Virus record (IMG/VR): IMGVR_UViG_3300021431_000012
Coordinates: 11,699-75,698 of that record
Strand: one strand, 5' to 3'
Length of the DNA stretch: 64,000 bases
Source of the DNA: a virus
Taxonomy: Duplodnaviria; Caudoviricetes
The notes under the pieces are model-generated. The model was not told where the DNA came from and did not search any database. It saw only the letters and a program-made list of their open reading frames with translations. Positions 9,499 to 61,868 of the stretch are shown piece by piece (the first letter of the stretch is position 1; every line of letters starts with the position of its first letter). A program made the position numbers and the translations under genes.

Positions 9499-10887
9499 TT
9501 ACTTTATCATGCTAGCAACGGCCTCTGCCCACTCATTCTCTTTGTGTTCGAGTGCGCCGTAAATCATGCGTACTTCGTCAGTGTCCAGACCCTTAAACAA
9601 CCCGCGACGGAGGGCTGCCTGTTTGTTTTCTTTGCGGGCTTCAAGATAACGCGTGGTACGATAGCTTGCCAGCATTGATACCTTCGTTTTATCAATGGCG
9701 CGGCGGACGTCCTCCATGAAGTCCACGAGCTCGGCGTCGTTGTTTGCCATAACGGGTAACTCCACGCGCCTGTCGTATTGCATGCGATAGAACACGAATC
9801 TGTCGCGGCTTGATGCGTCCACGACGTTTGCTGCCGTGTACTCTAAATCTGCGCCAGTCATGGCCGTGTTGCCCGCTGCAATTACGCGGAAGTTAGGGTG
9901 AGCCTTTTTGTTGCCAACGACGGGAAAATCGAAGGAGCCAGTTGCCATGGCGGTATTTAAAACCGTCGTACATTGTACCTCCGTTCTGTCCCACTCGTCC
10001 AAAAATAGAATGCCGCCCTTCGTGAAGGCGTTGTAGAACGGAGTCGGGACAAAGTTACCTGCGGCGTCCCCGTACCCCTTTACCTCGTGCGCAAATTGCA
10101 ACTGCGAACACTCATAAAAGTCGAGCCCGAGGGCGTCGGCTACCTGTCGCGCTGTGTGCGATTTTCCGCAACCTGCCGCGCCGAACATGTAGGGCGCGAA
10201 GCCTTCGTTGACGTCCTGCACAATATCGGCGAAGTCTGAACACGTCACACCTTCGACGTTATGCTCCTGTCCGTCGGCCGTTGTTACAACAACACGCTGG
10301 GCATGTGTTGCGGCCGTTGCTTTTAGCTCATCAATAACGGGCTGCAACTTTGCGAACACGGCAGCAACGACGTTCTTCTCCACACCTGCGAACAACGGCG
10401 TGAGTGCGCTGAACGCGTCCACAACGGCCGACTCTGTGGGCGTTGCGGCGGGCACGGGTGCAGCGTCGGCGGGTGTTGTGTCCGTCGTGGGCTGAACGTC
10501 TGCGGCTGGCTTCGTTGCACGCTTGCCACGACGCGGCTTCCGTGCTGGTTTCTCCTCCGTCGGTTTTTCGTCCGTCGGCACGGGCACAACATCGGGCTGT
10601 GCTGGCGTTGCTTCCGTCGGCGTTGCTTCGCTATCGGGCTCGGGCTTCGTTGCTGGCTTCGACGTGCGCGGCTTCCCTCCGCGGCGCGTCGTTAATTCGT
10701 ACCCGTCCATGATACGGAAGGCCTGACAGCCTTCTTCGTCCGTTGTTAACTCAAGAACGTGCGCCCAGTTTTTGATAAAGCGGGCAGTCATATCTTTGCC
10801 AGTGTTTGACTTCACCAGGCCGTTCTTCACTGTTACGTTTGACACATTGAAAACCTCACTCGTCTGAATGTTCTTTAAAGTAATCAT
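9499..10887 (-). CDS. MoxR/CbbQ/CobS-like AAA+ ATPase with a low-complexity N-terminal linker
   Basis: Walker A GAAGCGKS, Walker B LFLDEWD, HPNFRVIAAGNT, DASSRDRF. Confidence 0.85.
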   Translation of the reverse strand: MITLKNIQTSEVFNVSNVTVKNGLVKSNTGKDMTARFIKNWAHVLELTTDEEGCQAFRIMDGYELTTRRGGKPRTSKPATKPEPDSEATPTEATPAQPDVVPVPTDEKPTEEKPARKPRRGKRATKPAADVQPTTDTTPADAAPVPAATPTESAVVDAFSALTPLFAGVEKNVVAAVFAKLQPVIDELKATAATHAQRVVVTTADGQEHNVEGVTCSDFADIVQDVNEGFAPYMFGAAGCGKSHTARQVADALGLDFYECSQLQFAHEVKGYGDAAGNFVPTPFYNAFTKGGILFLDEWDRTEVQCTTVLNTAMATGSFDFPVVGNKKAHPNFRVIAAGNTAMTGADLEYTAANVVDASSRDRFVFYRMQYDRRVELPVMANNDAELVDFMEDVRRAIDKTKVSMLASYRTTRYLEARKENKQAALRRGLFKGLDTDEVRMIYGALEHKENEWAEAVASMIK

Positions 10888-36822: not shown

Positions 36823-39366
36823 ATGGGACAAATAATTGGTTCAGCGGCGAAGCCGAAAAGATGCAATCTTTCCAAGTTATCACAACTCGGAACACCAGCG
36901 GCAGGGGAGCATATTCTTGTCAGCAGCGACAACTCCATGAATGCGGCAGGACAAGGGAACTTTGACTGCTACATCATGGGCAACGGAAGAACGGCTGCGA
37001 CGGCGTTGCCGCTTCATTACCTTGCAGATGAAGAGCCAGTAGCGGGAAGTACGCAGGGCATTATGAGCGGATGGGCGCACAAGTACGTGAAGCCTATTAC
37101 CGACGAGATGGTTGAGGTGTCGCAAACGACCGAAGATGTGACACAAGTATATGATGACAGAATTACGGAAGCATACATTGCCTCAAATGGGCGAATTTAT
37201 GGCGCAAGCAGAGGTTCTACGCTTGTAGTGAATCTTAAACAATTTGCCGTAGATACGACTCTTTCCTATTCAATAACAGGCGGCAGTATTGGCATCGTGT
37301 TAAGCGTAACCAAACCTGCAAAAAATGGAACGTACACAGTTGTTGCTACTTCGGGTAGTGGGCAGGTGACCGTGCCTGCTGGCTATTGGCTTGGATGGGG
37401 ACGAAACGAACCCGCAGGTGCTGCGCTGACCCAGCAGGTTGAAACGATAGTCGTGAAAACACCTCTCTTTCCTTCAGACGTTGAGGACGAAGTAACGGAG
37501 GAATCCACCGCACCCGTCACAAGTGCTGCCATCTATTCGGCTATTCAAGCAGGCAAGGGTCAGAAGACTGAATATGCCAATATAGTGCCCGACGGCTCGC
37601 TTGTTGACTACTACATTGCTTCGAGCAATAGCAAAGTGTATGCTGGAAACAATTATACGATTAATTATAAATATCTAACGGAAGACACCACAATTCGGTA
37701 TAACGTAGGCGAGAGTACTGAAAGCGTCGCATACCATTCCTCGATTCCATCTGCAAACACGCAGGTTACGCTTGTGGCTACTTCTGGCAATTCGGGTGAA
37801 GCCGTTATCCCTGCTGGCAATTATCTGCTTTGGGTAGTATATAGGGAACAAATTAGTTGCTTTGTGGGCGAAAAGGCGGAAGTGCCTTTGCAATATATTA
37901 ACGCTGACACACTTGTTGTAGCGGAGAACATCAAGCAGAGAAAGGAAACACGGAGCGCAATCATCGTGGATGGCTCGATGCCTCTCGGATGGTGCAAGAA
38001 TAGTTGCAAGGACATATTCGACGTTACCGCGGCAACGGCAGACACTATCAGTGTGTCATCGGCTGATGCCGCATCTTTCGATAGCACGGAAGGACTTGTA
38101 GCCGTGAAGCATAGCAACGGGAACTATACCTGCCACCTCTTCACGATTTCGGGCAACGTGCTGACCATTCTGCGAAAGAAAGGATATGACGATGATGTGA
38201 GCCTTGCGGATGTCGTGAAATGCCAAGGAGTGTATGATACGAATAATAGCGGTATGGGGCAGCACCTTTCTGCTTTCGGCTATCTCGCCTATGCAAACTA
38301 TATCGCGCAGGCAATCCACGCACGATGCAGCATCAAGCAAGACAACCTTGTATACGGCTTGCATTTCACGGAGCAGGGAGTCAACTCTTCTGCACCTTAC
38401 TACAAGTCGGGACTGCTCTATGATACGGACATGAATGTCATTGCCGTTCCGAGGTATCACCAAGCAAAATTTACGGGAACGCTCGCAAGTGGAATTTCAG
38501 CCCATGCTGGCGTACTGCAAAACAACCAATACGACAAGATACGCGCTTGCGCCCTAAAATATTTTGCGTTCGTTCAGAACACTCAAGGAACGTGGGTTGA
38601 ATTTGACCTACCGAGCGACGGGTGTCTTGGTAACGGCTATGTGGAAATCACGGGCGGTTGTTATATAGATGAAACAAGGACGGGGCACATTCGCGTGGAT
38701 GTACTCGCAAATGGTGTGTCAGTATATAACACAATGCTTGCCAATAGCAACGAGGGAAAGATTGCCTGCGACAACCTCGACTTGCAAAAGCATATATCTG
38801 TAAGGTTTACGCTGACCGATGCAGCACTAACCGTTATGTTGCTAACCGATATTCGCTTATATCAAGCAGCCGAAGGCAAGACTGCCGTTCCCACCATTAA
38901 GACAACCGACAAGATTGCTATCATCGGTGATTCATGGACTCAATTCCCGACTACCAGCGGTGTGGTTGAAAGCGATAACACGTATAACACCATTGACACG
39001 CTTGCCAATGGTCAGCAGGCTGGAGGCTATTGCTATCTGCCAAAGGAGTTGTCGCGCCTGCTCGGTGTTGAGATTGACAACTACGGCAAAAGCAACATGA
39101 CGGCAAGTTACGGCATTGAGCAGATGGCTGACATCATCAAGAGTGGCAAGCACTACGACTACATCATCCTCGAATACTATATCAATGACCGCACGGCAAG
39201 CGTGGATGCAAATATTTGGCTTTCGAAGATGGCGCAACTTGTGACAATGTGCAAGAGCATTAATGCGAAGCCTATCATCCTCGGACCGACTGCAACAAAT
39301 AGTATCAACCAGTCCGTAGGCTTGATTTCGTGGTGGCATCAACTTGTAAAAGGGTTGAATCTATAA
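36823..39366 (+). CDS. Receptor-binding/tail spike protein with SGNH (GDSL) esterase motifs
   Basis: IIGDSW (aa 702-705 GDSW), NYGKS, YIND, and an upstream GQHLSAFGY..YA..IA segment. Confidence 0.65.
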   Translation: MGQIIGSAAKPKRCNLSKLSQLGTPAAGEHILVSSDNSMNAAGQGNFDCYIMGNGRTAATALPLHYLADEEPVAGSTQGIMSGWAHKYVKPITDEMVEVSQTTEDVTQVYDDRITEAYIASNGRIYGASRGSTLVVNLKQFAVDTTLSYSITGGSIGIVLSVTKPAKNGTYTVVATSGSGQVTVPAGYWLGWGRNEPAGAALTQQVETIVVKTPLFPSDVEDEVTEESTAPVTSAAIYSAIQAGKGQKTEYANIVPDGSLVDYYIASSNSKVYAGNNYTINYKYLTEDTTIRYNVGESTESVAYHSSIPSANTQVTLVATSGNSGEAVIPAGNYLLWVVYREQISCFVGEKAEVPLQYINADTLVVAENIKQRKETRSAIIVDGSMPLGWCKNSCKDIFDVTAATADTISVSSADAASFDSTEGLVAVKHSNGNYTCHLFTISGNVLTILRKKGYDDDVSLADVVKCQGVYDTNNSGMGQHLSAFGYLAYANYIAQAIHARCSIKQDNLVYGLHFTEQGVNSSAPYYKSGLLYDTDMNVIAVPRYHQAKFTGTLASGISAHAGVLQNNQYDKIRACALKYFAFVQNTQGTWVEFDLPSDGCLGNGYVEITGGCYIDETRTGHIRVDVLANGVSVYNTMLANSNEGKIACDNLDLQKHISVRFTLTDAALTVMLLTDIRLYQAAEGKTAVPTIKTTDKIAIIGDSWTQFPTTSGVVESDNTYNTIDTLANGQQAGGYCYLPKELSRLLGVEIDNYGKSNMTASYGIEQMADIIKSGKHYDYIILEYYINDRTASVDANIWLSKMAQLVTMCKSINAKPIILGPTATNSINQSVGLISWWHQLVKGLNL

Positions 39367-39419: not shown

Positions 39420-39821
39420 ATGAAAAAAGCATTGGTATTTATAACAATAGCATTCATGGTGCTATCTTGTGCAACCAAAACCAAAATCGAATATGTAGAT
39501 AGGGAGGTTGTTAAGGATAGAATGCATTATGTTCATGACACGTTAAGGGAAATCACCCGTGACACCATTGAACATAATGTGTTTATGCGTGGTGACACCG
39601 TGTTTGATGTCAAGTATGTCAAGAGCGTACAATGGAAAGACAAAATTGTTGAAAAAACCGACACGATTATCCGTGATTCTATCCAAGTGCAAGTGAAAAA
39701 AGAAATTGTAGAAAAGAAAGTAATTCCAAAATGGTGCTACATTTCTTTGCTTATTTGTGGATTATTTGCTATCTTTGCAATTATTAAGTTGATTTTATGG
39801 AAACAAGTTCATTCGGTTTAA
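39420..39821 (+). CDS. Putative unimolecular spanin
   Basis: Lipobox VLSC after a signal peptide, beta-rich middle, C-terminal TM WCYISLLICGLFAIFAIIKLIL. Confidence 0.6.
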   Translation: MKKALVFITIAFMVLSCATKTKIEYVDREVVKDRMHYVHDTLREITRDTIEHNVFMRGDTVFDVKYVKSVQWKDKIVEKTDTIIRDSIQVQVKKEIVEKKVIPKWCYISLLICGLFAIFAIIKLILWKQVHSV

Positions 39822-42800
39822 ACCAAAATTTCCAGATATACAAGGATGTGGACGGTGTGCAAACGCCGTTCCACAATCTTGTTTTAAGAAAGTCGGTAGT
39901 TGATAGTGTAGTAATGTCATTGGGTGACAAAATCACTGGTGATGTCTATTACATTAACAACCACTTAGATGTATCAATGCAAGAATATGTCGTTTACAAT
40001 GGCATTAAGTATTCATTGGTAAATCCACCTACAATTGTAAAGGAAGGCATTGTTAGCGACAATTCGGAGTTGCGTGGCATGACCAAATACTCGTTTGAAT
40101 TCTACCACCCGATGTATATGCTATCAAGCATTCCTTTTACTGATGTTGCGGTTAGTAACGATGAAGCAAGGTATCTTTCCGAGAATCGCAACTTTAGTTG
40201 GATGGGTTCACTTGTTGACTATGTTGCAAAGCTAAACAAGAATCTTGAAAACACGGAATGGGTAGTAGCCATTAGTGATGATAGTGGCGTGCAAGCCAAA
40301 AGATTCGTTCTAAGCGACGTTCTTTCTTTCGACAATAACTTTATAAGCGACGCGTTAAAAACCGCTTACGACACGTGGGAAGTGCCTTTTGTGATAGATA
40401 AGACCGATGCTTATGGTAACAACAAAAAGTTTTTGATTCTTTTTGGCTTGCCTAGCAATGAAATCTATGAAACAGATTCGCATGGTGACCCAACCGAAAC
40501 GCCCTTTGTTTTCCACTACGGAAAAGGCGTCGGCTTAAAGAATAATTCTCGCACACCGAAGAACAACAAGATAGTTACACGCATTGTTGGCTATGGTAGT
40601 GAAAACAACATTCCCTATGGCTACCCACAAATTATTTGGCAAGGTGACCAATCATGGGAATACACATTGAACAACACGCCTGGTGTTCAAGAAATAAGCA
40701 TTGGTGGCGAACTTGTTTCGGCAACATCATATCCTATCTATGACGGCATTGTTGGTGGTAGGCATGTAAGACTAATCAAGCACCCGTTCCAAAGAAACCA
40801 CCTTATGCCTAGTGTCTACACGGATAGGGTGAACAAAAAGGTAAATCCTTTTGCCGCGAATTTCAATCCTAACATTGAACTTGTAGACTACTATGATGCG
40901 GACGGCACTTATCCAAACGAGATTAATCCGCTAGCCCCGTCTTGCGAAATACACGAATTTGAAAAGATAAAGCCAGAACTTGGAACGGCAAAAATTATAA
41001 GTGTTGCGCCTTATGATGAAGCAGCAGAAAAATACATTTCATACTCCACATTTGAACAATACATCAATGCTATTATTGATGGCGACAACACGCCACAACG
41101 GGAGCATGATGTGCTAACAACACTTCTTGACGAAATTAACCATGGTACGGAAACTTACCACGACTCTTTCAATGGCGGCACATACGGCTACGAACTAGAC
41201 ATGACTAGCGATGAAACATATTACTACATCAAGTATGTTTCTAGCAATAGCAACTTTGAATACATCGTTCTAAAAGATGCGCATGCAGTTCCGCCCGTTG
41301 TTTGGGATGACACAATGGATGATGACGGCAACTATAAGCAAAGCTATTTTAAGCTAACATTGCCGCGTCTTGACTTTGACATTTACGCTTGTGCATCTAT
41401 CACGGAAGAAATGTCTATTGCCATGCGTAGTGGTGCATGCATTGGCTGCACATTCCAAGTGCAAGTAGATTGGGAGGATTACAAGAAGAATTTCTTTAAT
41501 GTCGATGGCGTTTTCGACCCGATTCCACATACAACCGACGATGACGGTCACGTTCGCGACATTAATAAGTACCCGAATAGCGAAAACGGTTCTATCACAC
41601 TTATTGTTCAAAAGGACAACAATACTTTTGGCATATTAATGCCTAACACATACCAATATCCGAAAGCGGACGATGACTTTGTGATTCTTGGTATATCATT
41701 GCCTACATCATACATCACAAACGCTGAGGAAAGACTAGATGAGGCTATGCGTGAATACATGTTGGAAAACAATGTGTATTACTACGACTACCCTTTGAAA
41801 TTTGACGAGCATTTCCTTGCCACACACCTTGGCATTCTTCGCCAAATGCGAAACAACACTATTGTGCGATTCCAATTTGGCAACGAACCACCGATGGCAC
41901 TATATATCAAGCAGCTTACGGTTAAGTTCGGTGAAAGTGTATTGCCGCAATATGACATCACGCTCACCGATGATGTTGAAATTGTTCTCAATCAAATTGG
42001 ACAAGTAACGGAAGATGTCAGTCGCCTTCGTGTGCAATTAGCAGAAATCCAAAAATATTATCTTGGTGACTATGTTGATGCCATGAATGGCAAGCTATCA
42101 CGCATTGTTGATGACGTTGCTCTTGGTCGTATCACATTCCAACAAGGATTGAATTCTATTGGCAACATAATCTTGCATAGCGAAATCAAATCCAACGGCT
42201 TTGTTTCTGGCATGGATGGTACTGGCCGTGGATGGCGAATAGACCAACTTGGTAATGGCGAATTAGAAAGTCTTCGCGTCCGTTCCTACTTGGAGGTTGT
42301 GGAATTGCTTATCAATCGTCTTCAAGCACAAGAGGGTGATACATTGTTCACAGACAATGACCAAATTGAATACGTCAAAGAGAAAGTAGTCAATGATGTA
42401 ACGTACTACATTCTAACACTAAAGGAAAAGTGGGAAGGTTACTTTACGTCGCAACAAGAAGGAAATATTGTCAAAGGAATTATCAACACGTTGGCAGCAA
42501 ACTATGGTAATGTAAGTGATATTACCGAAGCGCAATGTGTTGAAGCAGATGGACAAAACAAATACTACACATCATGGATGCGTGTTGTCAACCCGTCACT
42601 TGCCGAAGAAACCGTTGGTAGAAACCAAATTGTTGTAGTCCTTTATGGTGATTCAGATGTTCCAGCACAAAGGAATTTCCCGCCATGCGAATTGATGACT
42701 ATTGCTAGGTTTGGTTGCGAGGATGCGCCCGATGGCGCTACCGATGCTCAAAAGGCTAGCGTGGAACGTAGACAAAGACTTTTTTCTATTTCCGTTTCTG

Positions 42801-45800
42801 ACGGTCGTATTTCAAAGCTAACGGGTGTCAACAAGCCGATTCTTGAAGAATGGAACTATGGAACAACGCTTGGCGTTATTCCTGATTTTATCAACAATTG
42901 GGCTATCAAGGAGCGTCTTATTGAGGGACGTGATTACTTGTATGCACAAGGTGTTATTGTCGGCGATTTTATCAAGGTAGACATCAATGGAGCGCCGCTT
43001 GTCAACTATGTTGATGTTGGCGAATGGGTAGACGGGCAAGAATATCTTCACAACGAGTACAATCCCGTAAACCTACAATGGGAAACGCATGATGTATGGC
43101 ACAATCAAGCCAAATGGCGTTGCGAACAACACCAACCCGTTAAAAGTGGCTCTACATTGAGGTATTACGAGCCGCAAGACAATTCGCCCTATTGGACAAA
43201 GCTACTTAGTAGTGGCGAAGGTTCACCAGTGCCATACTACCATGACCAATTCTATAGCTGGTCGGCTTATGCTTCAACTAATTCGCAAACAACGCCTCCG
43301 TCCGATGCCGTTTGGTCACGTTCCATTCCAACCGCAACATCGGGCAAGCCGTACCTTTGGTTAAAAGACCAATTAATGACATGGAATGATAGCACAAAGG
43401 AATACGACGCAGGTGCTATCTACTACACAAGAATCACTGGTGAGGATGGAACGGGTATTGCCGTTAAAGGCTCTGTTGTTGCCGTTGTAGGTAATGTTTC
43501 AAGCCTTCCGTCAACCGCAAACAACGGCGACCTTGCTATCGTCACGTCAAGTCCATACATCTACATCTATCAAAATGGGCAATGGCAAGAGCGTGGCGAT
43601 ATTGCCGACGTGGGCGATTGCTATGTTTATGATGGTGATGGTCACTTGTGGGTATGGAATGGTTCATCATGGCAAGATGTCGGTGTGTTTAGGGGAGAAC
43701 CAGGCGTGTCAAGTTACATCCACATTGCTTGGGCTAACGAACTTGATTTAACCGACCAACAAACTGGCAAAAAATACCCGTCAACATTCGTTGTAACAAA
43801 AGAGCCTAATGAAGAATTTCGTTACATGGGTGTTTATGTTGATGACAATGCTGGGGCTGACTCATCTGATGGTACGAAATATGATTGGTCTGAAGTAAAA
43901 GGTAGCGACGCTCCTTATGTGACTAGTTCGCAATCCATATTGCTTTTTGACACAAACAACGATGGGGTTGCGACCTCGACATCTTCGCAGCAATGCACCA
44001 TAAAATTATTCGTAGGTGGCAGTCAAGTTGATGTGACAAATGTTACAATACAAAAGCCTATTTATAGCACAGCAACATATGTTATCGACAATGGGGCTGT
44101 TGTGTTAACGATTTCTGTAAATATTAGCACGCCAGAATCGGCATTTGGAGGTCTTTATGGCATTACGGTTAAAGGCACTAAAGATGGCAAAGAATACACG
44201 GCATACGCATCTATTACGGTTGCGGCAAATAAGGCTGGTGCAGGTGCCATTTTCCTTGACCTTGACAATGAAAACGATTCCATGTTGTATGGTTCTAGTG
44301 ATGACGAAACACCCGTTAGCGGCAATGTTATTTCACAAGGCTACATGTATGACAATGGCAATGATGTCACAAGCCAAGTGTCGCAATGGTCAATTGTTGA
44401 ATCATATGGCTGTACCTATAGCACATCTATTCAGAATGGAAAGATGACCATTACTGGCATGACGGCAACATCTGGATATGCCGTTCTTGAAGCAACTTAT
44501 TTAGGGGTTAAATATCGTGCAAAGCTAACCCTCAAAAAGCTCGTTGGTGTAGATAAATACGAAATCATTGTCAACCCTAACGCATTAGGATATTCTACCG
44601 ACACAATATCTACACCACAGCAAATCCAAATACAAGTTTATAAGACTACGATAACAGGTGAAAGACAAAGAATAACGGCTGCAATACCAGCCGATTATGG
44701 TCTGTATTACTATCAAGGAAATTCAACGTCTGGCACACGAATCACAAGCTATAGTTCTAGTGGCGATTATTGGTATTTTGTGGCAACCGACGTGTCTTCA
44801 TTGACGCAATATCGTGTGGCATTGCTTGATGAAAACAATGAAATTCTTGATTCGGAAACAATTCCCATTACAAAGGTTTCAAAGGGCGCGGATGGTGATG
44901 CTGCGGTGGCTTACCAACTTCTACCCACAGCAACCGCATTGAACTTTTCTCGTGGCAATGATGGTGAAACGTTTGTGCCAAGTTCATTGAACATTTCTTG
45001 CGGCTACATGAAAATTGTTGGCGAAGAAATCAAAGACAAGGATGACGGCACAAACGTGCAAGGCACTGGGCTTACCATTGATGGCTACAACTTGTATTTC
45101 CGTAGGCTTAACCAAAATGGAGTGCCGATTGCTTCATCATACACAACGGAAGGTTGGGATTGGACTGGCGGCACTGGAACTACCGCATATTTTATAAAGC
45201 ATAATGGTGTTATTGAGGTTGATGCATATAGTAGTCAAAGTGCTATTGAATTTTGTCTTAGTAGCAACACTCCAAATGCCACAACTAGTGATGACATTAT
45301 TGCTATACTAACCGTTCCAATTACGCGAAGTGGCGAAAAAGGTAGCATCGGCAAAATGGGAAAAAATTTCTATTATGCTGGTGAGTGGAATGAAAGTGAT
45401 GGTGGTTCGTTTGAGGTAACCGACTATGAAACCCCGTATTTCATGTATAACAACAAGTATTGGGTGTGGGTAGGTGACAATGGCACATACTCTATTAATT
45501 CCACTAACCGCCCATCTAGTAGTAATTCCGATTGGGAACTTATGGTTACCGATTTCAAATACCTTATTACCGAGGCTATGTTCACAAAATTCGCCAAACT
45601 TGGTGCTGGTATTTTTAACGAAGATTGGATGTTTTCTAGTCATGGAAATGCCTTAGTGACTATCGCCCTTACAGCTAGTACATCATCTAGCGAATCATGG
45701 GCACGAATAAGTGGGCAAACGGCAATTCAAGTCAAGCAGGGGGCTACTTATTCATTTGTCATTAATTGCAAGACTACGGCATCTGGAAATACATATTCTA

Positions 45801-46909
45801 TTCGTCCGTATATTGACGATGGTTCTGGCTATGAACAATCACAAGCACGAATTTGGATAACGTCAACGACGGCGCAAAATTACACATTCAATTTTGTTGC
45901 TGAAAGAACTGGTACATTACTATTCTATCATTATGGCAATGGCACAACATATTCCATAAGAACATATAATAGTTCGGAATACAACAAGGTTACTCCGTCA
46001 TTTATGAATGCCGATGAAAGAATATTGCTTGATGCACCAAGAGAAATTAACACAACAACACACACAAGGATTGTTGAAACATCCGTGACTGTTGTTAGTG
46101 GTCTCACGTATAGAATTACGGTAAAAGGATATGCAAATAGTGGAACTTTGCGCGTTAGACCATATTTTAAAAATAGTGGTTCTGCCGCATCTTCTAGTTA
46201 CTTGTCAATATCATATAGAACATCAACCACAATCACATACACGTTTACACCAACGTCAAGTGGTGATATAACAATAGATGGCTATATGGCTACATCTGGA
46301 ACGTCGGGGTATGTGGAATATATGTCAATAAAAGCAACCAATCCTTTCATTCCTCGTGTCGCTATTGATTGGCGTAGTGGTTATGCCCACTTCGGCGGTG
46401 ACAATATTCGCTTTAACCCAGACGGCAGCGGTTTCCTTGCAAACAAGAATATTACTTGGGACGAAAACGGCAATTGTATCTTTAGCGGACTGCAAATGAA
46501 ACGAAAGACGGTTGTTAATTCAAGTAATTATCTAAATTATTTAAAGCCAGATGATACATGGGGTTATTCGGAATATGTTTTTGACTTTGAAAAAGCATCA
46601 ACTTGGATGGAAATAGAGTCTTTGCCAAGCAACTTTTCTGGCATTTTAATGCCTATTAGCGGTGATTTTGTCCGTTCACTAGTTGGACAGTCTATATTAT
46701 TATACAACAAGTCTAGCGTTACGATTCCAATCACTGGGAGAACATTTTGGGAAAATGGGAAAACAACAATCCCCGTAACAAACCCTAGCTTTAATAGCAC
46801 GACAATAGCGCCTAATTGCTTTGTGAGATTTGAATGTAAAATTACTATTGACGGGAATGACAATGAATTACTTTATTGGAGTTGTGTAAAAGGAAACATA
46901 TCTTCGTAA
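39797..46909 (+). CDS. Large tail protein (Tal/central fibre, 2370 aa)
   Basis: N-terminal hub region (GVGLKNNSRTPKNNKIVTRIVGYGSENNIP), Ig-like and CBM-like repeats toward the C-terminus. Confidence 0.8.
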   Translation: METSSFGLNQNFQIYKDVDGVQTPFHNLVLRKSVVDSVVMSLGDKITGDVYYINNHLDVSMQEYVVYNGIKYSLVNPPTIVKEGIVSDNSELRGMTKYSFEFYHPMYMLSSIPFTDVAVSNDEARYLSENRNFSWMGSLVDYVAKLNKNLENTEWVVAISDDSGVQAKRFVLSDVLSFDNNFISDALKTAYDTWEVPFVIDKTDAYGNNKKFLILFGLPSNEIYETDSHGDPTETPFVFHYGKGVGLKNNSRTPKNNKIVTRIVGYGSENNIPYGYPQIIWQGDQSWEYTLNNTPGVQEISIGGELVSATSYPIYDGIVGGRHVRLIKHPFQRNHLMPSVYTDRVNKKVNPFAANFNPNIELVDYYDADGTYPNEINPLAPSCEIHEFEKIKPELGTAKIISVAPYDEAAEKYISYSTFEQYINAIIDGDNTPQREHDVLTTLLDEINHGTETYHDSFNGGTYGYELDMTSDETYYYIKYVSSNSNFEYIVLKDAHAVPPVVWDDTMDDDGNYKQSYFKLTLPRLDFDIYACASITEEMSIAMRSGACIGCTFQVQVDWEDYKKNFFNVDGVFDPIPHTTDDDGHVRDINKYPNSENGSITLIVQKDNNTFGILMPNTYQYPKADDDFVILGISLPTSYITNAEERLDEAMREYMLENNVYYYDYPLKFDEHFLATHLGILRQMRNNTIVRFQFGNEPPMALYIKQLTVKFGESVLPQYDITLTDDVEIVLNQIGQVTEDVSRLRVQLAEIQKYYLGDYVDAMNGKLSRIVDDVALGRITFQQGLNSIGNIILHSEIKSNGFVSGMDGTGRGWRIDQLGNGELESLRVRSYLEVVELLINRLQAQEGDTLFTDNDQIEYVKEKVVNDVTYYILTLKEKWEGYFTSQQEGNIVKGIINTLAANYGNVSDITEAQCVEADGQNKYYTSWMRVVNPSLAEETVGRNQIVVVLYGDSDVPAQRNFPPCELMTIARFGCEDAPDGATDAQKASVERRQRLFSISVSDGRISKLTGVNKPILEEWNYGTTLGVIPDFINNWAIKERLIEGRDYLYAQGVIVGDFIKVDINGAPLVNYVDVGEWVDGQEYLHNEYNPVNLQWETHDVWHNQAKWRCEQHQPVKSGSTLRYYEPQDNSPYWTKLLSSGEGSPVPYYHDQFYSWSAYASTNSQTTPPSDAVWSRSIPTATSGKPYLWLKDQLMTWNDSTKEYDAGAIYYTRITGEDGTGIAVKGSVVAVVGNVSSLPSTANNGDLAIVTSSPYIYIYQNGQWQERGDIADVGDCYVYDGDGHLWVWNGSSWQDVGVFRGEPGVSSYIHIAWANELDLTDQQTGKKYPSTFVVTKEPNEEFRYMGVYVDDNAGADSSDGTKYDWSEVKGSDAPYVTSSQSILLFDTNNDGVATSTSSQQCTIKLFVGGSQVDVTNVTIQKPIYSTATYVIDNGAVVLTISVNISTPESAFGGLYGITVKGTKDGKEYTAYASITVAANKAGAGAIFLDLDNENDSMLYGSSDDETPVSGNVISQGYMYDNGNDVTSQVSQWSIVESYGCTYSTSIQNGKMTITGMTATSGYAVLEATYLGVKYRAKLTLKKLVGVDKYEIIVNPNALGYSTDTISTPQQIQIQVYKTTITGERQRITAAIPADYGLYYYQGNSTSGTRITSYSSSGDYWYFVATDVSSLTQYRVALLDENNEILDSETIPITKVSKGADGDAAVAYQLLPTATALNFSRGNDGETFVPSSLNISCGYMKIVGEEIKDKDDGTNVQGTGLTIDGYNLYFRRLNQNGVPIASSYTTEGWDWTGGTGTTAYFIKHNGVIEVDAYSSQSAIEFCLSSNTPNATTSDDIIAILTVPITRSGEKGSIGKMGKNFYYAGEWNESDGGSFEVTDYETPYFMYNNKYWVWVGDNGTYSINSTNRPSSSNSDWELMVTDFKYLITEAMFTKFAKLGAGIFNEDWMFSSHGNALVTIALTASTSSSESWARISGQTAIQVKQGATYSFVINCKTTASGNTYSIRPYIDDGSGYEQSQARIWITSTTAQNYTFNFVAERTGTLLFYHYGNGTTYSIRTYNSSEYNKVTPSFMNADERILLDAPREINTTTHTRIVETSVTVVSGLTYRITVKGYANSGTLRVRPYFKNSGSAASSSYLSISYRTSTTITYTFTPTSSGDITIDGYMATSGTSGYVEYMSIKATNPFIPRVAIDWRSGYAHFGGDNIRFNPDGSGFLANKNITWDENGNCIFSGLQMKRKTVVNSSNYLNYLKPDDTWGYSEYVFDFEKASTWMEIESLPSNFSGILMPISGDFVRSLVGQSILLYNKSSVTIPITGRTFWENGKTTIPVTNPSFNSTTIAPNCFVRFECKITIDGNDNELLYWSCVKGNISS

Positions 46910-58876: not shown

Positions 58877-58907
58877 CAAAGATAATGATAATATTTCAAT
58901 AAACAAA
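58877..58907 (-). promoter_or_regulatory. Consensus promoter of the replication operon
   Basis: TTTG (58907-58904), 19-nt spacer, TATCTTTG (58884-58877). Confidence 0.75.
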
Positions 58908-58911
58908 CAAA

Positions 58912-59802
58912 TTATTCTTGTTTTTTAAACATTAATATATTTTGATGCACTTTAACCAACTTGCCGCTTTTCATATTTCCTGCCGCTCTTAATGCCGCAC
59001 TAGCCAAAGATGTTGCCAATATACCTTCGTTGTAATATTTCATATTTTTGCATCTTTGCATAAGTTTAACCGTGTCTGCCGTGAACCCGTAATAATTTCC
59101 TTTTTTACAACGAACTTCACCGACGACAACTACGGCCATTCCATTTACTTTAAGTAATTTACATGCTTTACGCATAATGCTTTCAAAAGTAAATATGAAA
59201 TCATCATAATCCATGTTTGATATGTCTCCTTGAATATCGCTATAAACTTCTAAATCTGCGTACGGAGGGCATGTGAAAACAAGGTCAAAATCTTGTTGTT
59301 TAATTTGGTCGAGAACAATATTACTATCGCCGCAATACCATGTCGGTATATTATCTACTAGTATTTCTTTCGCTTGCGCTATGTTGCTATCTATTTGTTC
59401 TTGTCGTATATCTATACCAGTATAATGGTAACCAAGATAATTTGCAATGATTCCGCGAACGCTACCTCCCGCAAACGGGTCTAGAATTTTTCCTCCACTT
59501 GGGCAATACCAACGGTAAATTAACTCACAAAGAACTGGGTCGAATATAGAAGTGTCACTTGGTAATTTATTTCCTCGTAAAGTACCTTCTTCACCTTTTT
59601 TGTCTGCCCAATTTTTCATATGATAAGTTACGGCATCGCGGCCAACTTCTGACTGAATGCCTAGCCCAATCCATTTCTTTTTTCTAGCTTGCCACAATCC
59701 ATCTTTTGTGTCTAGAATAGAAAACGGGTTTGCACCAAATTCTTTTTTTAGGTCACCTTTTTCTTGAATAGGGTTACCAAATAAATCAAATTGTTGTTCC
59801 AT
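58912..59802 (-). CDS. DNA amino-methyltransferase (N6-A/N4-C type)
   Basis: Motif I ILDPFAGGS precedes motif IV FTCPPY; start moved to MEQQFD. Confidence 0.85.
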   Translation of the reverse strand: MEQQFDLFGNPIQEKGDLKKEFGANPFSILDTKDGLWQARKKKWIGLGIQSEVGRDAVTYHMKNWADKKGEEGTLRGNKLPSDTSIFDPVLCELIYRWYCPSGGKILDPFAGGSVRGIIANYLGYHYTGIDIRQEQIDSNIAQAKEILVDNIPTWYCGDSNIVLDQIKQQDFDLVFTCPPYADLEVYSDIQGDISNMDYDDFIFTFESIMRKACKLLKVNGMAVVVVGEVRCKKGNYYGFTADTVKLMQRCKNMKYYNEGILATSLASAALRAAGNMKSGKLVKVHQNILMFKKQE

Positions 59803-59809
59803 GTTGTTT

Positions 59810-60595
59810 TTAATTTTGTAATTTTTTACCAATTATCCAAAGTAAATCATTGTCTTTTATAAAAGGGATACATTTTGCTTCATATATTTCGTCAAGTTCT
59901 ATTCCGTCTATAGTTGTTTTTTGCGGTTTTGCATGATAATCAAACGGTGAGTTATTGAAAGAATATTTTACGTTTGTGTTGCCAAACAAGTCGTTTTTTG
60001 CTGGATATAAATTATATTTTTTAAATACATCTTGCGGGTTTTTCCCAACTACAATGCCAACAACTTCTTTGTCAATCATTCCGTAATATTCAAGACCTTT
60101 TATTATTGCAATCATATTCATGCCGCCACCACACGGAACAACAATTCGTTTAACGTGGTTTGGGATGTTTTGAACTTGATGCATATTTATATCAATAGTC
60201 AATTGGCATTCTAATCCAAAAGGTATGTATAAATAATTATTCTCTTTAGCGTACAAAGTAGATTGTGCTATAAGAACATTGTTATATCCGACTTTTGTTC
60301 TGTGTATTGTCGCGCCAGAAGTTCTTGATATTGATTCTATTATATTTGTATCTTTTCCGCTTGGCATAAAGATGTGGCTATTTACGCCCATTGTTTCGCA
60401 CACTTTAGCAACTACTTCGCATTGTCTGCTATCTCTACTGCCACACGTCACAAAGTTGCTTACGCCGTAATCTATCCCTTTTTTTATAAGTTCAAGGGCT
60501 ACACGAGCCTTGCCGCCGCAAACGCCATTTATTACAAATTCGTCTTCACGTTTGTAATAATGATTTCCAATTTTTTCAATTTTTGTTATTTCCAT
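59810..60595 (-). CDS. PLP-dependent enzyme, fold type II (ACC deaminase/D-Cys desulfhydrase/Cys synthase-like)
   Basis: KRED...GGKAR (Schiff-base Lys), VVPCGGG phosphate loop, LDEIYEAK. Confidence 0.8.
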   Translation of the reverse strand: MEITKIEKIGNHYYKREDEFVINGVCGGKARVALELIKKGIDYGVSNFVTCGSRDSRQCEVVAKVCETMGVNSHIFMPSGKDTNIIESISRTSGATIHRTKVGYNNVLIAQSTLYAKENNYLYIPFGLECQLTIDINMHQVQNIPNHVKRIVVPCGGGMNMIAIIKGLEYYGMIDKEVVGIVVGKNPQDVFKKYNLYPAKNDLFGNTNVKYSFNNSPFDYHAKPQKTTIDGIELDEIYEAKCIPFIKDNDLLWIIGKKLQN

Positions 60596-61628
60596 AATCT
60601 TTTATTTGATTGATTTTGTAATAAATTGCATTGTCATACCATGATTGTTTGTGTATCAACTGTGATTTATCACCGTGAACTCCATCCACAAATATAGCAT
60701 CACACAAATAATGCTCAAAAAGGTAGTCTTTAATATATTCTGAAGAAAGACATCCTAGATAATCTTTTATTTTTTTGGCAATTACAATGTCGCATTGTGT
60801 ATATGCAACTATTTTTTCTAACGAAAAAGACGTTATATTTTTACCACAATGTAAAAAATACGCATTTTTGTAATCTTTGCTTAATATTTCAATTCCTATA
60901 AGTTTGTCATTATAATAAAAAGCAAATGCGATGCCGCAATCTTTATTGATACATAAATCCAACATCCTATTCGCCGTTTTTGTGTTAAACTTGAATCTAT
61001 TTTCTATAAAATATTTATATAGATTATTTGCTTCGTATGAAACGGCTTTTATGTTAGTTTTATCTACAATAACAATCTTTACGCCATTTGATAAAAGTTC
61101 ATTTGCGTGACGATAATGTTTTCTTTGTCTTTTTTTTCTTTTATAACTTTTTGTAACATAGAAATTGCAGTTATCCCAATTATCGTTTTCTGTACATATT
61201 ACTTCGTATGTTTTTACCCTTTCAAAGTTCTTAAAAAATGGGATAACAACTTTATTTCCTGATATGTTTGCATTGTTACACAAAACTTTATAAGATATTG
61301 AAAAATATTGAGAATGAAACATTATTCCGACAATACGCAACATAACAAGAAATATGTTGTCTTGATGTTCTATCAACATGTATCTTAACTTATAGTTAGA
61401 TGTTGCTTCACCCCAATAACAAGACGTGTAATATTGCGGGATTTCGTTTATAGGGATATTATTAACATTAAAAAAGAAATCAAAAATTGGCTTGGAATTT
61501 ATGTCAATTCTTTTAGAATTTTTTTTAACCCATTCAAAGTTTTGGTTATTTTTAATAAATAATTCGTCAGACTTTATAGCATTGTCTTTGATTATGTCAA
61601 ATAATCCGAATAAATTTTGTTCATGCAT
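60576..61628 (-). CDS. DUF2156/MprF-C-like GNAT-fold (aminoacyl) transferase, tentative
   Basis: NFYV...KKRQRKH...N, AFYYNDKLIGIEI...LHCGKN, ...DG..GDKSQLIHKQSW pattern; very AT-rich; start moved to MHEQNL. Confidence 0.45.
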   Translation of the reverse strand: MHEQNLFGLFDIIKDNAIKSDELFIKNNQNFEWVKKNSKRIDINSKPIFDFFFNVNNIPINEIPQYYTSCYWGEATSNYKLRYMLIEHQDNIFLVMLRIVGIMFHSQYFSISYKVLCNNANISGNKVVIPFFKNFERVKTYEVICTENDNWDNCNFYVTKSYKRKKRQRKHYRHANELLSNGVKIVIVDKTNIKAVSYEANNLYKYFIENRFKFNTKTANRMLDLCINKDCGIAFAFYYNDKLIGIEILSKDYKNAYFLHCGKNITSFSLEKIVAYTQCDIVIAKKIKDYLGCLSSEYIKDYLFEHYLCDAIFVDGVHGDKSQLIHKQSWYDNAIYYKINQIKDYGNNKN

Positions 61629-61660
61629 AATTATAAAGTTTTTAGGTGAAAAATAAATTG

Positions 61661-61731
61661 TCAGGGTGTCAAGATTTGAACTTGAACTAATAGAACCAAA
61701 ATCTATTGTGCTACCATTACACCACACCCCG
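61661..61731 (-). tRNA. tRNA-Gln (anticodon TTG)
   Basis: Cloverleaf: acceptor CGGGGTG/CACCCTG, D arm GTGT-AATGGT-AGCAC, anticodon stem ATAGA/TCTAT with loop TT-TTG-GT, T loop TTCAAAT; CCA not encoded. Confidence 0.9.
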
Positions 61732-61837
61732 ATGTCCCCACCGCCGTGGGGAATTTACATAATTAATTCAAACTAACATAAATTATTTCGATTATGACTT
61801 TTTCGCCCATCACGGGCTAATCTTTTTGACCACGATG

Positions 61838-61868
61838 CAAAGTTAGCAATAAACGTTGAATATGCAAA
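61838..61868 (-). promoter_or_regulatory. Consensus promoter of the tRNA/modification cassette
   Basis: TTTG (61868-61865), 19-nt spacer, TAACTTTG (61845-61838). Confidence 0.8.

Follow-up and report, generated by a model that had tools for sequence, protein, structure and literature searches.

We analyzed a small gene cassette in a 64,000-nucleotide (nt) stretch of viral DNA (hereafter the window), which corresponds to positions 11699-75698 of the IMG/VR record IMGVR_UViG_3300021431_000012, a complete phage genome of 75,698 bp with direct terminal repeats. The phage is of the Bacteroidota type, also styled gut-type, and its genome encodes a terminase, a tape-measure-like giant protein, an O-like initiator, a DnaB-type primase/helicase, and a sliding clamp. 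The cassette is located among the replication genes. It is read from the minus strand in the order tRNA-Gln with anticodon UUG (61660-61731), a predicted soluble tandem-GNAT protein of 350 amino acids (aa) called here ORF1 (60576-61628), a fold-type II pyridoxal phosphate (PLP) enzyme of 261 aa (59810-60595), and a methyltransferase of 296 aa (58912-59802). The analysis suggests that the cassette probably puts an amino-acid-like mark, so far undescribed, on the phage DNA.

A pattern search placed a Bacteroidota-type promoter on the minus strand at either end of the block. The upstream one (61838-61868; TTTG, a spacer of 19 nt, and TAACTTTG) precedes the tRNA and the cassette, and the other (58877-58907; TTTG, a spacer of 19 nt, and TATCTTTG) heads the replication initiator operon, with the genes of the O-like initiator, the DnaB-type primase/helicase, and the clamp downstream of it. 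The pattern TTTG-N19-21-TAnnTTTG occurs at nine sites in the window against 1.9 expected, a number reached by none of 100 shuffles. Sigma-70-type promoters were found in the window at chance level (19 vs. 19.3 expected). ORF1 shares 20 nt with the PLP gene, 7 nt separate the PLP gene from the methyltransferase gene, and there are 4 nt between the methyltransferase stop codon (58912-58914) and the TTTG of the promoter that follows. A terminator search found none within the block, including the stretch from the tRNA to the genes, and none behind the methyltransferase gene. The two promoters, the tRNA, the coupled reading frames, and these spacings had been listed in a preliminary description of this DNA, and all of them were confirmed. 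A longer GTG frame of ORF1, reaching to 61727, overlaps the tRNA and was judged spurious because the homologues begin at the ATG. On the same strand, a perfect GC-rich hairpin without a T-run (61736-61751; CCCCAC, loop GGCG, GTGGGG) stands 4 nt ahead of the tRNA 5' end and might signal processing or pausing in the stretch that separates promoter and tRNA. Also on the minus strand, another exact TTTG-N19-TAnnTTTG is found inside ORF1 at 60689-60719. The PLP start codon follows some 95 nt later, so that the site could drive the PLP-methyltransferase pair as an internal promoter, unless the match is a chance one.

The middle gene had been described as coding for a fold-type II PLP enzyme, and our results agree with this and place it in the ACC-deaminase/D-cysteine-desulfhydrase branch (ACC, 1-aminocyclopropane-1-carboxylate). 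The protein matches PF00291 with 36.6 bits (cut-off 35) and phrog_3650 with an E-value of 1.2e-28. Its AlphaFold2 (AF2) model (pLDDT 92.8) is nearest to the ACC-deaminase homologue 1J0A (Z 24.3) and to the D-cysteine desulfhydrase DcyD (Z 23.7), compared with Z values of about 20-21 for TrpB and serine dehydratases. K29 of the GGKAR motif and S56 correspond in the alignment to K51 and S78 of ACC deaminase, which sets the GGKAR lysine on the catalytic one, and both residues are invariant in 38 relatives. ACC deaminases and D-cysteine desulfhydrases also have a Tyr-Glu or Tyr-Thr pair near the C-terminus. Y238-E239, likewise invariant among the relatives within LDxxYE(A/S)KC, may correspond to the YE pair of ACC deaminases, the HMMER alignment to ACC deaminase stopping short of this region.

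The profile of the 38 relatives also matched gp226 of Salmonella phage ViI (hhalign probability 98.6%, E 5e-16), with K29 placed on K92 of gp226. BLASTP of the PLP enzyme to gp226 gave 7e-10, and a ViI-like orthologue of gp226 fills phrog_3650 at E 3e-214. K92 is the lysine named by Lee et al. (PMC8989533). In DNA, O-serinyl- and C-glycinyl-thymidine are substrates of ViI gp226 and of gp52 from Pseudomonas phage M6, both PLP-dependent decarboxylases (Lee et al., NAR 2021, PMC8989533). Sequence comparison thus assigns the PLP enzyme to phrog_3650 as a homologue of gp226, with the same fold type as the ViI and M6 proteins and an aligned catalytic lysine; the closest relative that has been studied decarboxylates amino acids carried on DNA and is no eliminase. 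Like the PLP gene here, the gene of gp226 sits among phage DNA-modification genes; gp226 is longer (424 vs. 261 aa), and the partner in the present phage is a methyltransferase-fold enzyme. In contrast to ViI and M6, we found no 5-hydroxymethyldeoxyuridine (5-hmdU) kinase, amino acid:DNA transferase, or dUMP hydroxymethylase here. None of the thymidine-pathway families PF18747, PF18724, and PF00303 (AADT, HMUD2, and thymidylate synthase) was detected in the complete genome, the absence of PF18747 being weaker evidence because no control genome matched it either. With no gene of the AADT, HMUD2, or ThyA families detected, the thymidine hypermodification route was rejected.

The third protein matches PF01555 with 53.6 bits (cut-off 26.7) and phrog_12517 with an E-value of 2e-84. 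It carries the S-adenosylmethionine (SAM) motif I of the FxGxG kind, DPFAGGSVRG, followed by motif IV, TCPPY, in keeping with its earlier designation as an xPPY amino-methyltransferase. Motif I is invariant where aligned and stands before motif IV, and Cys precedes PPY (CPPY) in 64 of the 65 family members. The SAM motif I and the PPY loop are shared with the N6-adenine/N4-cytosine methyltransferases of PF01555 (beta/gamma class, including phage ParB-methyltransferase fusions), where motif IV has the form (D/N/S)PP(Y/F/W) and so, unlike here, starts with D, N, or S.

The link between the two enzymes was assessed in homologous loci. A scan of IMG/VR confirmed 153 viral loci with PLP homologues, 80 of which were fetched and scanned with purpose-built profiles. 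In 49 of the 80, the methyltransferase and PLP domains are found in one open reading frame (ORF); the two are adjacent in another 12 and lie within 7 kb in 11, giving 72 of 80 together. The other eight have no partner at the threshold, one of them having a neighboring CPPY protein. Most fusions have the PLP domain embedded in the methyltransferase between profile positions ~147 and ~150, with the SAM-binding half on one side and the catalytic loop on the other, so that most PLP-retrieved relatives differ from usual PF01555 enzymes in carrying a PLP domain between motif I and motif IV; PLP-first and PLP-last fusions were also found. Among cultured phages, the pairing is present in the Pseudanabaena cyanophage Pam4 (gp70), mycobacteriophage Vincenzo (gp1/gp2), and Erythrobacter phage vB_EliS-R6L (gp1; L105:388-3003), where a CPPY methyltransferase has an N-terminal extension and a divergent inserted PLP domain (E 2.9e-11). 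The R6L protein was published as a 'CcrM-like DNA modification methylase' from sequence alone, without mention of the PLP domain (PMC5463345). Carriers of the module include phages of Bacteroidota, cyanobacteria, actinobacteria, alphaproteobacteria, and Bacillota. The conserved core is the methyltransferase with the PLP enzyme, mostly as one fused protein, and ORF1 is an optional accessory of a small subclade. At two loci (L006:5013-6756 and L009:5025-7059), from phages that read TAG as glutamine, the PLP enzyme directly follows an SPPY-type methyltransferase-like protein without a Pfam match, and a similar SPPY protein is found near an ORF1 relative in L101.

ORF1 itself was resolved only by structure prediction. 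Sequence searches against Pfam, PHROGs, the PDB, and phage genomes (tblastn) gave nothing useful, and a Pfam search with ORF1 and 28 relatives gave no match at E-values up to 1. The preliminary description had suggested a GNAT/DUF2156-like protein and regarded this as its weakest link; on comparison of structures, including Foldseek, the call held. The AF2 model, built with an alignment of the 28 relatives, contains two GNAT domains (pLDDT 93.5, pTM 0.89) in a tandem arrangement of the DUF2156/MprF/Fem type. The best match was 2HQY, a DUF2156 protein of Bacteroides thetaiotaomicron (Z 18.6, root-mean-square deviation 3.8, 271 residues aligned), and further matches were the C-terminal domains of aaPGS/MprF (Z 13.5-15.4; L-PGS 4v36 15.4 and 5vrv 15.1), FemX (6snr, 1xf8, and 4ii9; Z 12.8-14.7), FemA (Z 12.3), and the aminoacyl-tRNA-dependent peptide synthases Sbb17/Sba18 (Z 12.3-12.6), with a Foldseek E-value of 1.7e-8 for the Fem fold. 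The top 23 structural matches were all aminoacyl-tRNA-dependent enzymes, and tandem GNATs using acyl-coenzyme A (CoA) reached only about Z 11. The ESM Atlas returned the same families by sequence features as well as by shape, with TM scores of 0.61-0.77 to LPG_synthase_C/FemAB/Acetyltransf_6 clusters and of 0.64/0.77 for a PF09924 cluster. The CoA motif Q/RxxGxG/A (motif A, for the CoA pyrophosphate) is absent from ORF1 and was detected by pattern in two of the 28 relatives. No membrane segment was found in ORF1, the maximum hydropathy over 19 residues being 1.43. Among 1.84 billion representatives scanned in full, 31 relatives turned up, each ~320-350 aa long. Enzymes with this fold pass amino acids from aminoacyl-tRNA to an amine or hydroxyl, and from the modeled fold and the missing CoA motif we infer that the donor of ORF1 is an aminoacyl-tRNA.

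The three protein genes occur together in other phages, as the preliminary description had expected. L001, whose ORF1 is 81% identical, and L003 both keep the order ORF1, PLP enzyme, methyltransferase, and L005 has the genes rearranged and carries an extra ORF1 paralogue. The ORF1 family is present in seven of 93 loci, and its members are always near a C/SPPY methyltransferase (L001, L003, L005, L096, L099, and L101); in L103 ORF1 relatives occur as tandem paralogues. Divergent second paralogues lie at L005:3107-4096 (hhalign 95.4%) and L103:221-1276 (hhalign 100%), and some phages therefore carry two Fem-like enzymes. A fourth recurrent gene codes for a protein of ~350 aa (L003:3893-4984, L096:931-1959, L013:4051-5091, and L099:6006-7076). 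The versions in L003, L096, and L013 match one another (phmmer E 1e-16 to 1e-83), and all four have a weak PP-loop ATPase signature, an N-terminal motif of the QueC/TilS/MnmA type. PP-loop ATPases activate carboxylates or carbonyls. This gene is absent from the present genome.

On its base composition, the block had been described as more AT-rich than its flanks and hence as an inserted module. ORF1 is indeed markedly AT-rich, with a GC content of 0.26-0.30, but the methyltransferase gene is at 0.33-0.385 compared with 0.37-0.40 in the flanks. Moreover, the cassette occupies the same place in L003 and L005, before an initiator-like gene, DnaB, and the clamp. On the GC profile and this synteny, an inserted AT-rich island was rejected as a description of the whole block, which does not look like a recent insertion.

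The tRNA gene fared differently from the protein genes. It was identified by ARAGORN, scores as a normal tRNA (Rfam RF00005, 64 bits), and has no encoded CCA; the complete 75.7-kb genome encodes no other tRNA. The preliminary description had counted it as one of four cassette members and as a possible aminoacyl donor. In a strict form of this idea, the tRNA would be a dedicated, non-translational donor for ORF1, and glutamine (or glutamate) would be put on the DNA; its position agrees with this, as the only tRNA of the genome has its 3' end 31 nt from the start of ORF1, in the same transcription unit and with no terminator between. However, no tRNA lies next to the ORF1 homologues of L001, L003, and L005, and the DNA upstream of ORF1, including promoter and tRNA, is not homologous in L001. 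These two observations rule out the tRNA as a conserved member of the cassette. In the phage genes CAA is used 456 times and CAG 147 times, CAA making up 3.2% of the codons, and this excess fits codon supply by tRNA-Gln. A dedicated donor is thus very improbable, and the tRNA is most likely an ordinary codon-supply tRNA and not a required donor.

We propose that the three protein genes form a DNA base-modification cassette within the replication module, for which the following mechanism is the best explanation; tentatively, we put the probability of this reading at roughly 0.45. The constant pair consists of a base-flipping SAM enzyme and a member of an enzyme family acting on alpha-amino acids on DNA. 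The optional partners are an enzyme that works on amines (ORF1) and one that activates carboxylates or carbonyls (the PP-loop-like protein). We infer from this arrangement a succession of aminocarboxypropyl transfer from SAM, trimming, and aminoacylation. The methyltransferase-fold enzyme would flip the target base and load an alpha-amino-acid group onto its exocyclic nitrogen, most simply the 3-amino-3-carboxypropyl group of SAM, with release of methylthioadenosine. The PLP enzyme would then form a Schiff base with the DNA-borne amine and trim the group, most likely by decarboxylation, leaving an aminopropyl group, whose free amine ORF1 would acylate with an amino acid drawn from a charged tRNA of the host. 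The DNA would end up with a bulky, charged adduct that protects it against host nucleases. An aminocarboxypropyl group on a base nitrogen is favored because this one assumption supplies a substrate to all partners.

Several observations speak against this proposal. The CPPY clade is also frequent without a PLP partner, for example as gp77 of Listeria phage B054, and the same core may therefore simply methylate. The distant ORF1 relatives in L096, L099, and L101 have a CPPY or SPPY methyltransferase as a neighbor, and no PLP enzyme is visible nearby. Eliminations, and not decarboxylation, are the usual reactions of fold-type II PLP enzymes in the ACC-deaminase branch. Finally, the resemblance of ORF1 to aminoacyl-tRNA transferases is one of fold only: searches of the genome returned nothing at E-values up to 10 with PF09924, which matched seven control genomes, and nothing at the same limit with PF02388. 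As the fold matches are strong while these two families match nothing, ORF1 is, according to its model, a protein with an aminoacyl-tRNA-dependent transferase fold and not a sequence member of a named family.

The leading alternative is that the cassette performs plain methylation and its other proteins are helpers, a reading strengthened by the many unpartnered CPPY methyltransferases. The methyltransferase, which belongs to PF01555 and has an intact SAM motif I, would make ordinary N6-methyladenine or N4-methylcytosine, as the CcrM-like annotation that R6L gp1 received from sequence would imply (PMC5463345). The PLP enzyme would be a metabolic helper handling SAM, S-adenosylhomocysteine, or a free amino acid, and the acceptor of ORF1 would not be DNA. 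A helper for free metabolites, however, need not sit inside the methyltransferase domain, and fusions are found in 49 of 80 loci in several architectures. The only studied relatives of the PLP enzyme act on DNA-borne substrates, and ORF1 relatives track methyltransferase genes across distant phages. For these reasons we regard plain methylation as rather unlikely. A Mom-like scheme, in which ORF1 aminoacylates the base amine directly while the methyltransferase-fold protein presents the base, would account for the ORF1 relatives that have a methyltransferase without a PLP enzyme; the PLP enzyme would then remodel the product, and the methyltransferase may still methylate. Such a reaction has a precedent in Mom, which aminoacylates N6 of deoxyadenosine from Gly-tRNA (PMC13219725). 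Yet most loci have the methyltransferase and PLP enzyme without an ORF1-family gene, and a substrate of the PLP enzyme must therefore exist without ORF1. An amide-linked aminoacyl group would, in addition, offer no free carboxylate for a decarboxylation of the gp226 type, and this scheme appears improbable.

Alternatively, the PLP enzyme could produce an aminoacrylate from serine, cysteine, or O-acetylserine, which the amine of the flipped base would attack to give an alanyl-type adduct, SAM serving for further methylation or being unused. The fold-type II enzymes TrpB and O-acetylserine sulfhydrylase perform beta-replacements, TrpB and serine dehydratases are among the structural matches mentioned above, and the domain insertion would set both active sites side by side. 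The sequence affinity of the PLP enzyme is nevertheless to the ACC-deaminase/DcyD branch and gp226, not to TrpB/CysK, and SAM motif I is invariant in the PLP-partnered methyltransferases, which makes this route quite improbable. Sulfur transfer, suggested by the cysteine of CPPY together with a desulfhydrase-like PLP enzyme, was set aside, the cassette having no ATP-dependent activating domain; fold-type II desulfhydrases release sulfide and do not load persulfides. Returning to the proposed base-modification cassette, its full chemistry, i.e., the transfer of aminocarboxypropyl from SAM to a DNA base, decarboxylation by the PLP enzyme, and aminoacylation from a charged tRNA by a Fem/DUF2156-type enzyme, would make up a new class of hypermodification, but as a complete sequence of steps it is still unlikely. 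If true, hypermodification would start from a canonical base without 5-hmdU, and Fem-type transferases would have their first DNA-directed role.

To our knowledge, known phage hypermodification starts from 5-hydroxymethylpyrimidines or 7-deazaguanine, or relies on Mom acting alone. The module described here has no kinase or glycosylase-like transferase and joins a SAM enzyme to a family known for trimming amino acids on DNA; to this pair the present phage adds a transferase of the charged-tRNA type. A literature search on the methyltransferase-PLP pair, the trio, and aminocarboxypropyl DNA modification found no published description. If the product is a new adduct, this would account for a resistance of such phage DNA to restriction and to sequencing chemistries, provide new DNA-labeling enzymes, and extend tRNA-dependent DNA chemistry beyond Mom. 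The cultured carriers vB_EliS-R6L, Pam4, and Vincenzo make the module directly testable.

Phage Mu Mom, so far the one enzyme for which tRNA-dependent modification of DNA has been shown, is a GNAT that moves glycine from Gly-tRNA to N6 of adenine in double-stranded DNA (Silva et al., Nat Commun 2026, PMC13219725). The likeness to ORF1 would be one of principle, with a charged tRNA as donor, DNA as the final target, and evasion of restriction as the outcome. Unlike Mom, which modifies the bare base, ORF1 probably acts on an adduct. The hallmarks of the Mom type are a single GNAT domain, the Mom insertion, and R111/S124; Mom is a single-domain dimer acting alone, whereas ORF1 is a predicted Fem/DUF2156-type tandem GNAT always accompanied by a methyltransferase-fold gene. 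Because ORF1 is modeled as a two-domain GNAT, it could at most work like Mom and is not a member of the Mom type. With DUF2156/LPG_synthase_C, aaPGS/MprF, FemX, and Sbb17/Sba18 proteins, ORF1 shares the tandem-GNAT fold over almost its full length (Z 12.5-18.6, 250-273 residues aligned) and the lack of a CoA-binding motif. It differs from the DUF2156, aaPGS, and Fem proteins in matching neither PF09924 nor PF02388 and in having no membrane domain, and its context is phage replication and a DNA methyltransferase instead of lipid or cell-wall genes.

Elsewhere in the window, two large genes on the plus strand code for a protein of 847 aa without a PHROG match (36823-39366) and one of 2370 aa with weak matches only, to PHROGs without known function (39797-46909). 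On the minus strand, a 462-aa protein (9499-10887) matches phrog_249 ('porphyrin biosynthesis', E 4.5e-43) and an ATPase PHROG, and is probably an AAA ATPase of the CobS/MoxR type.

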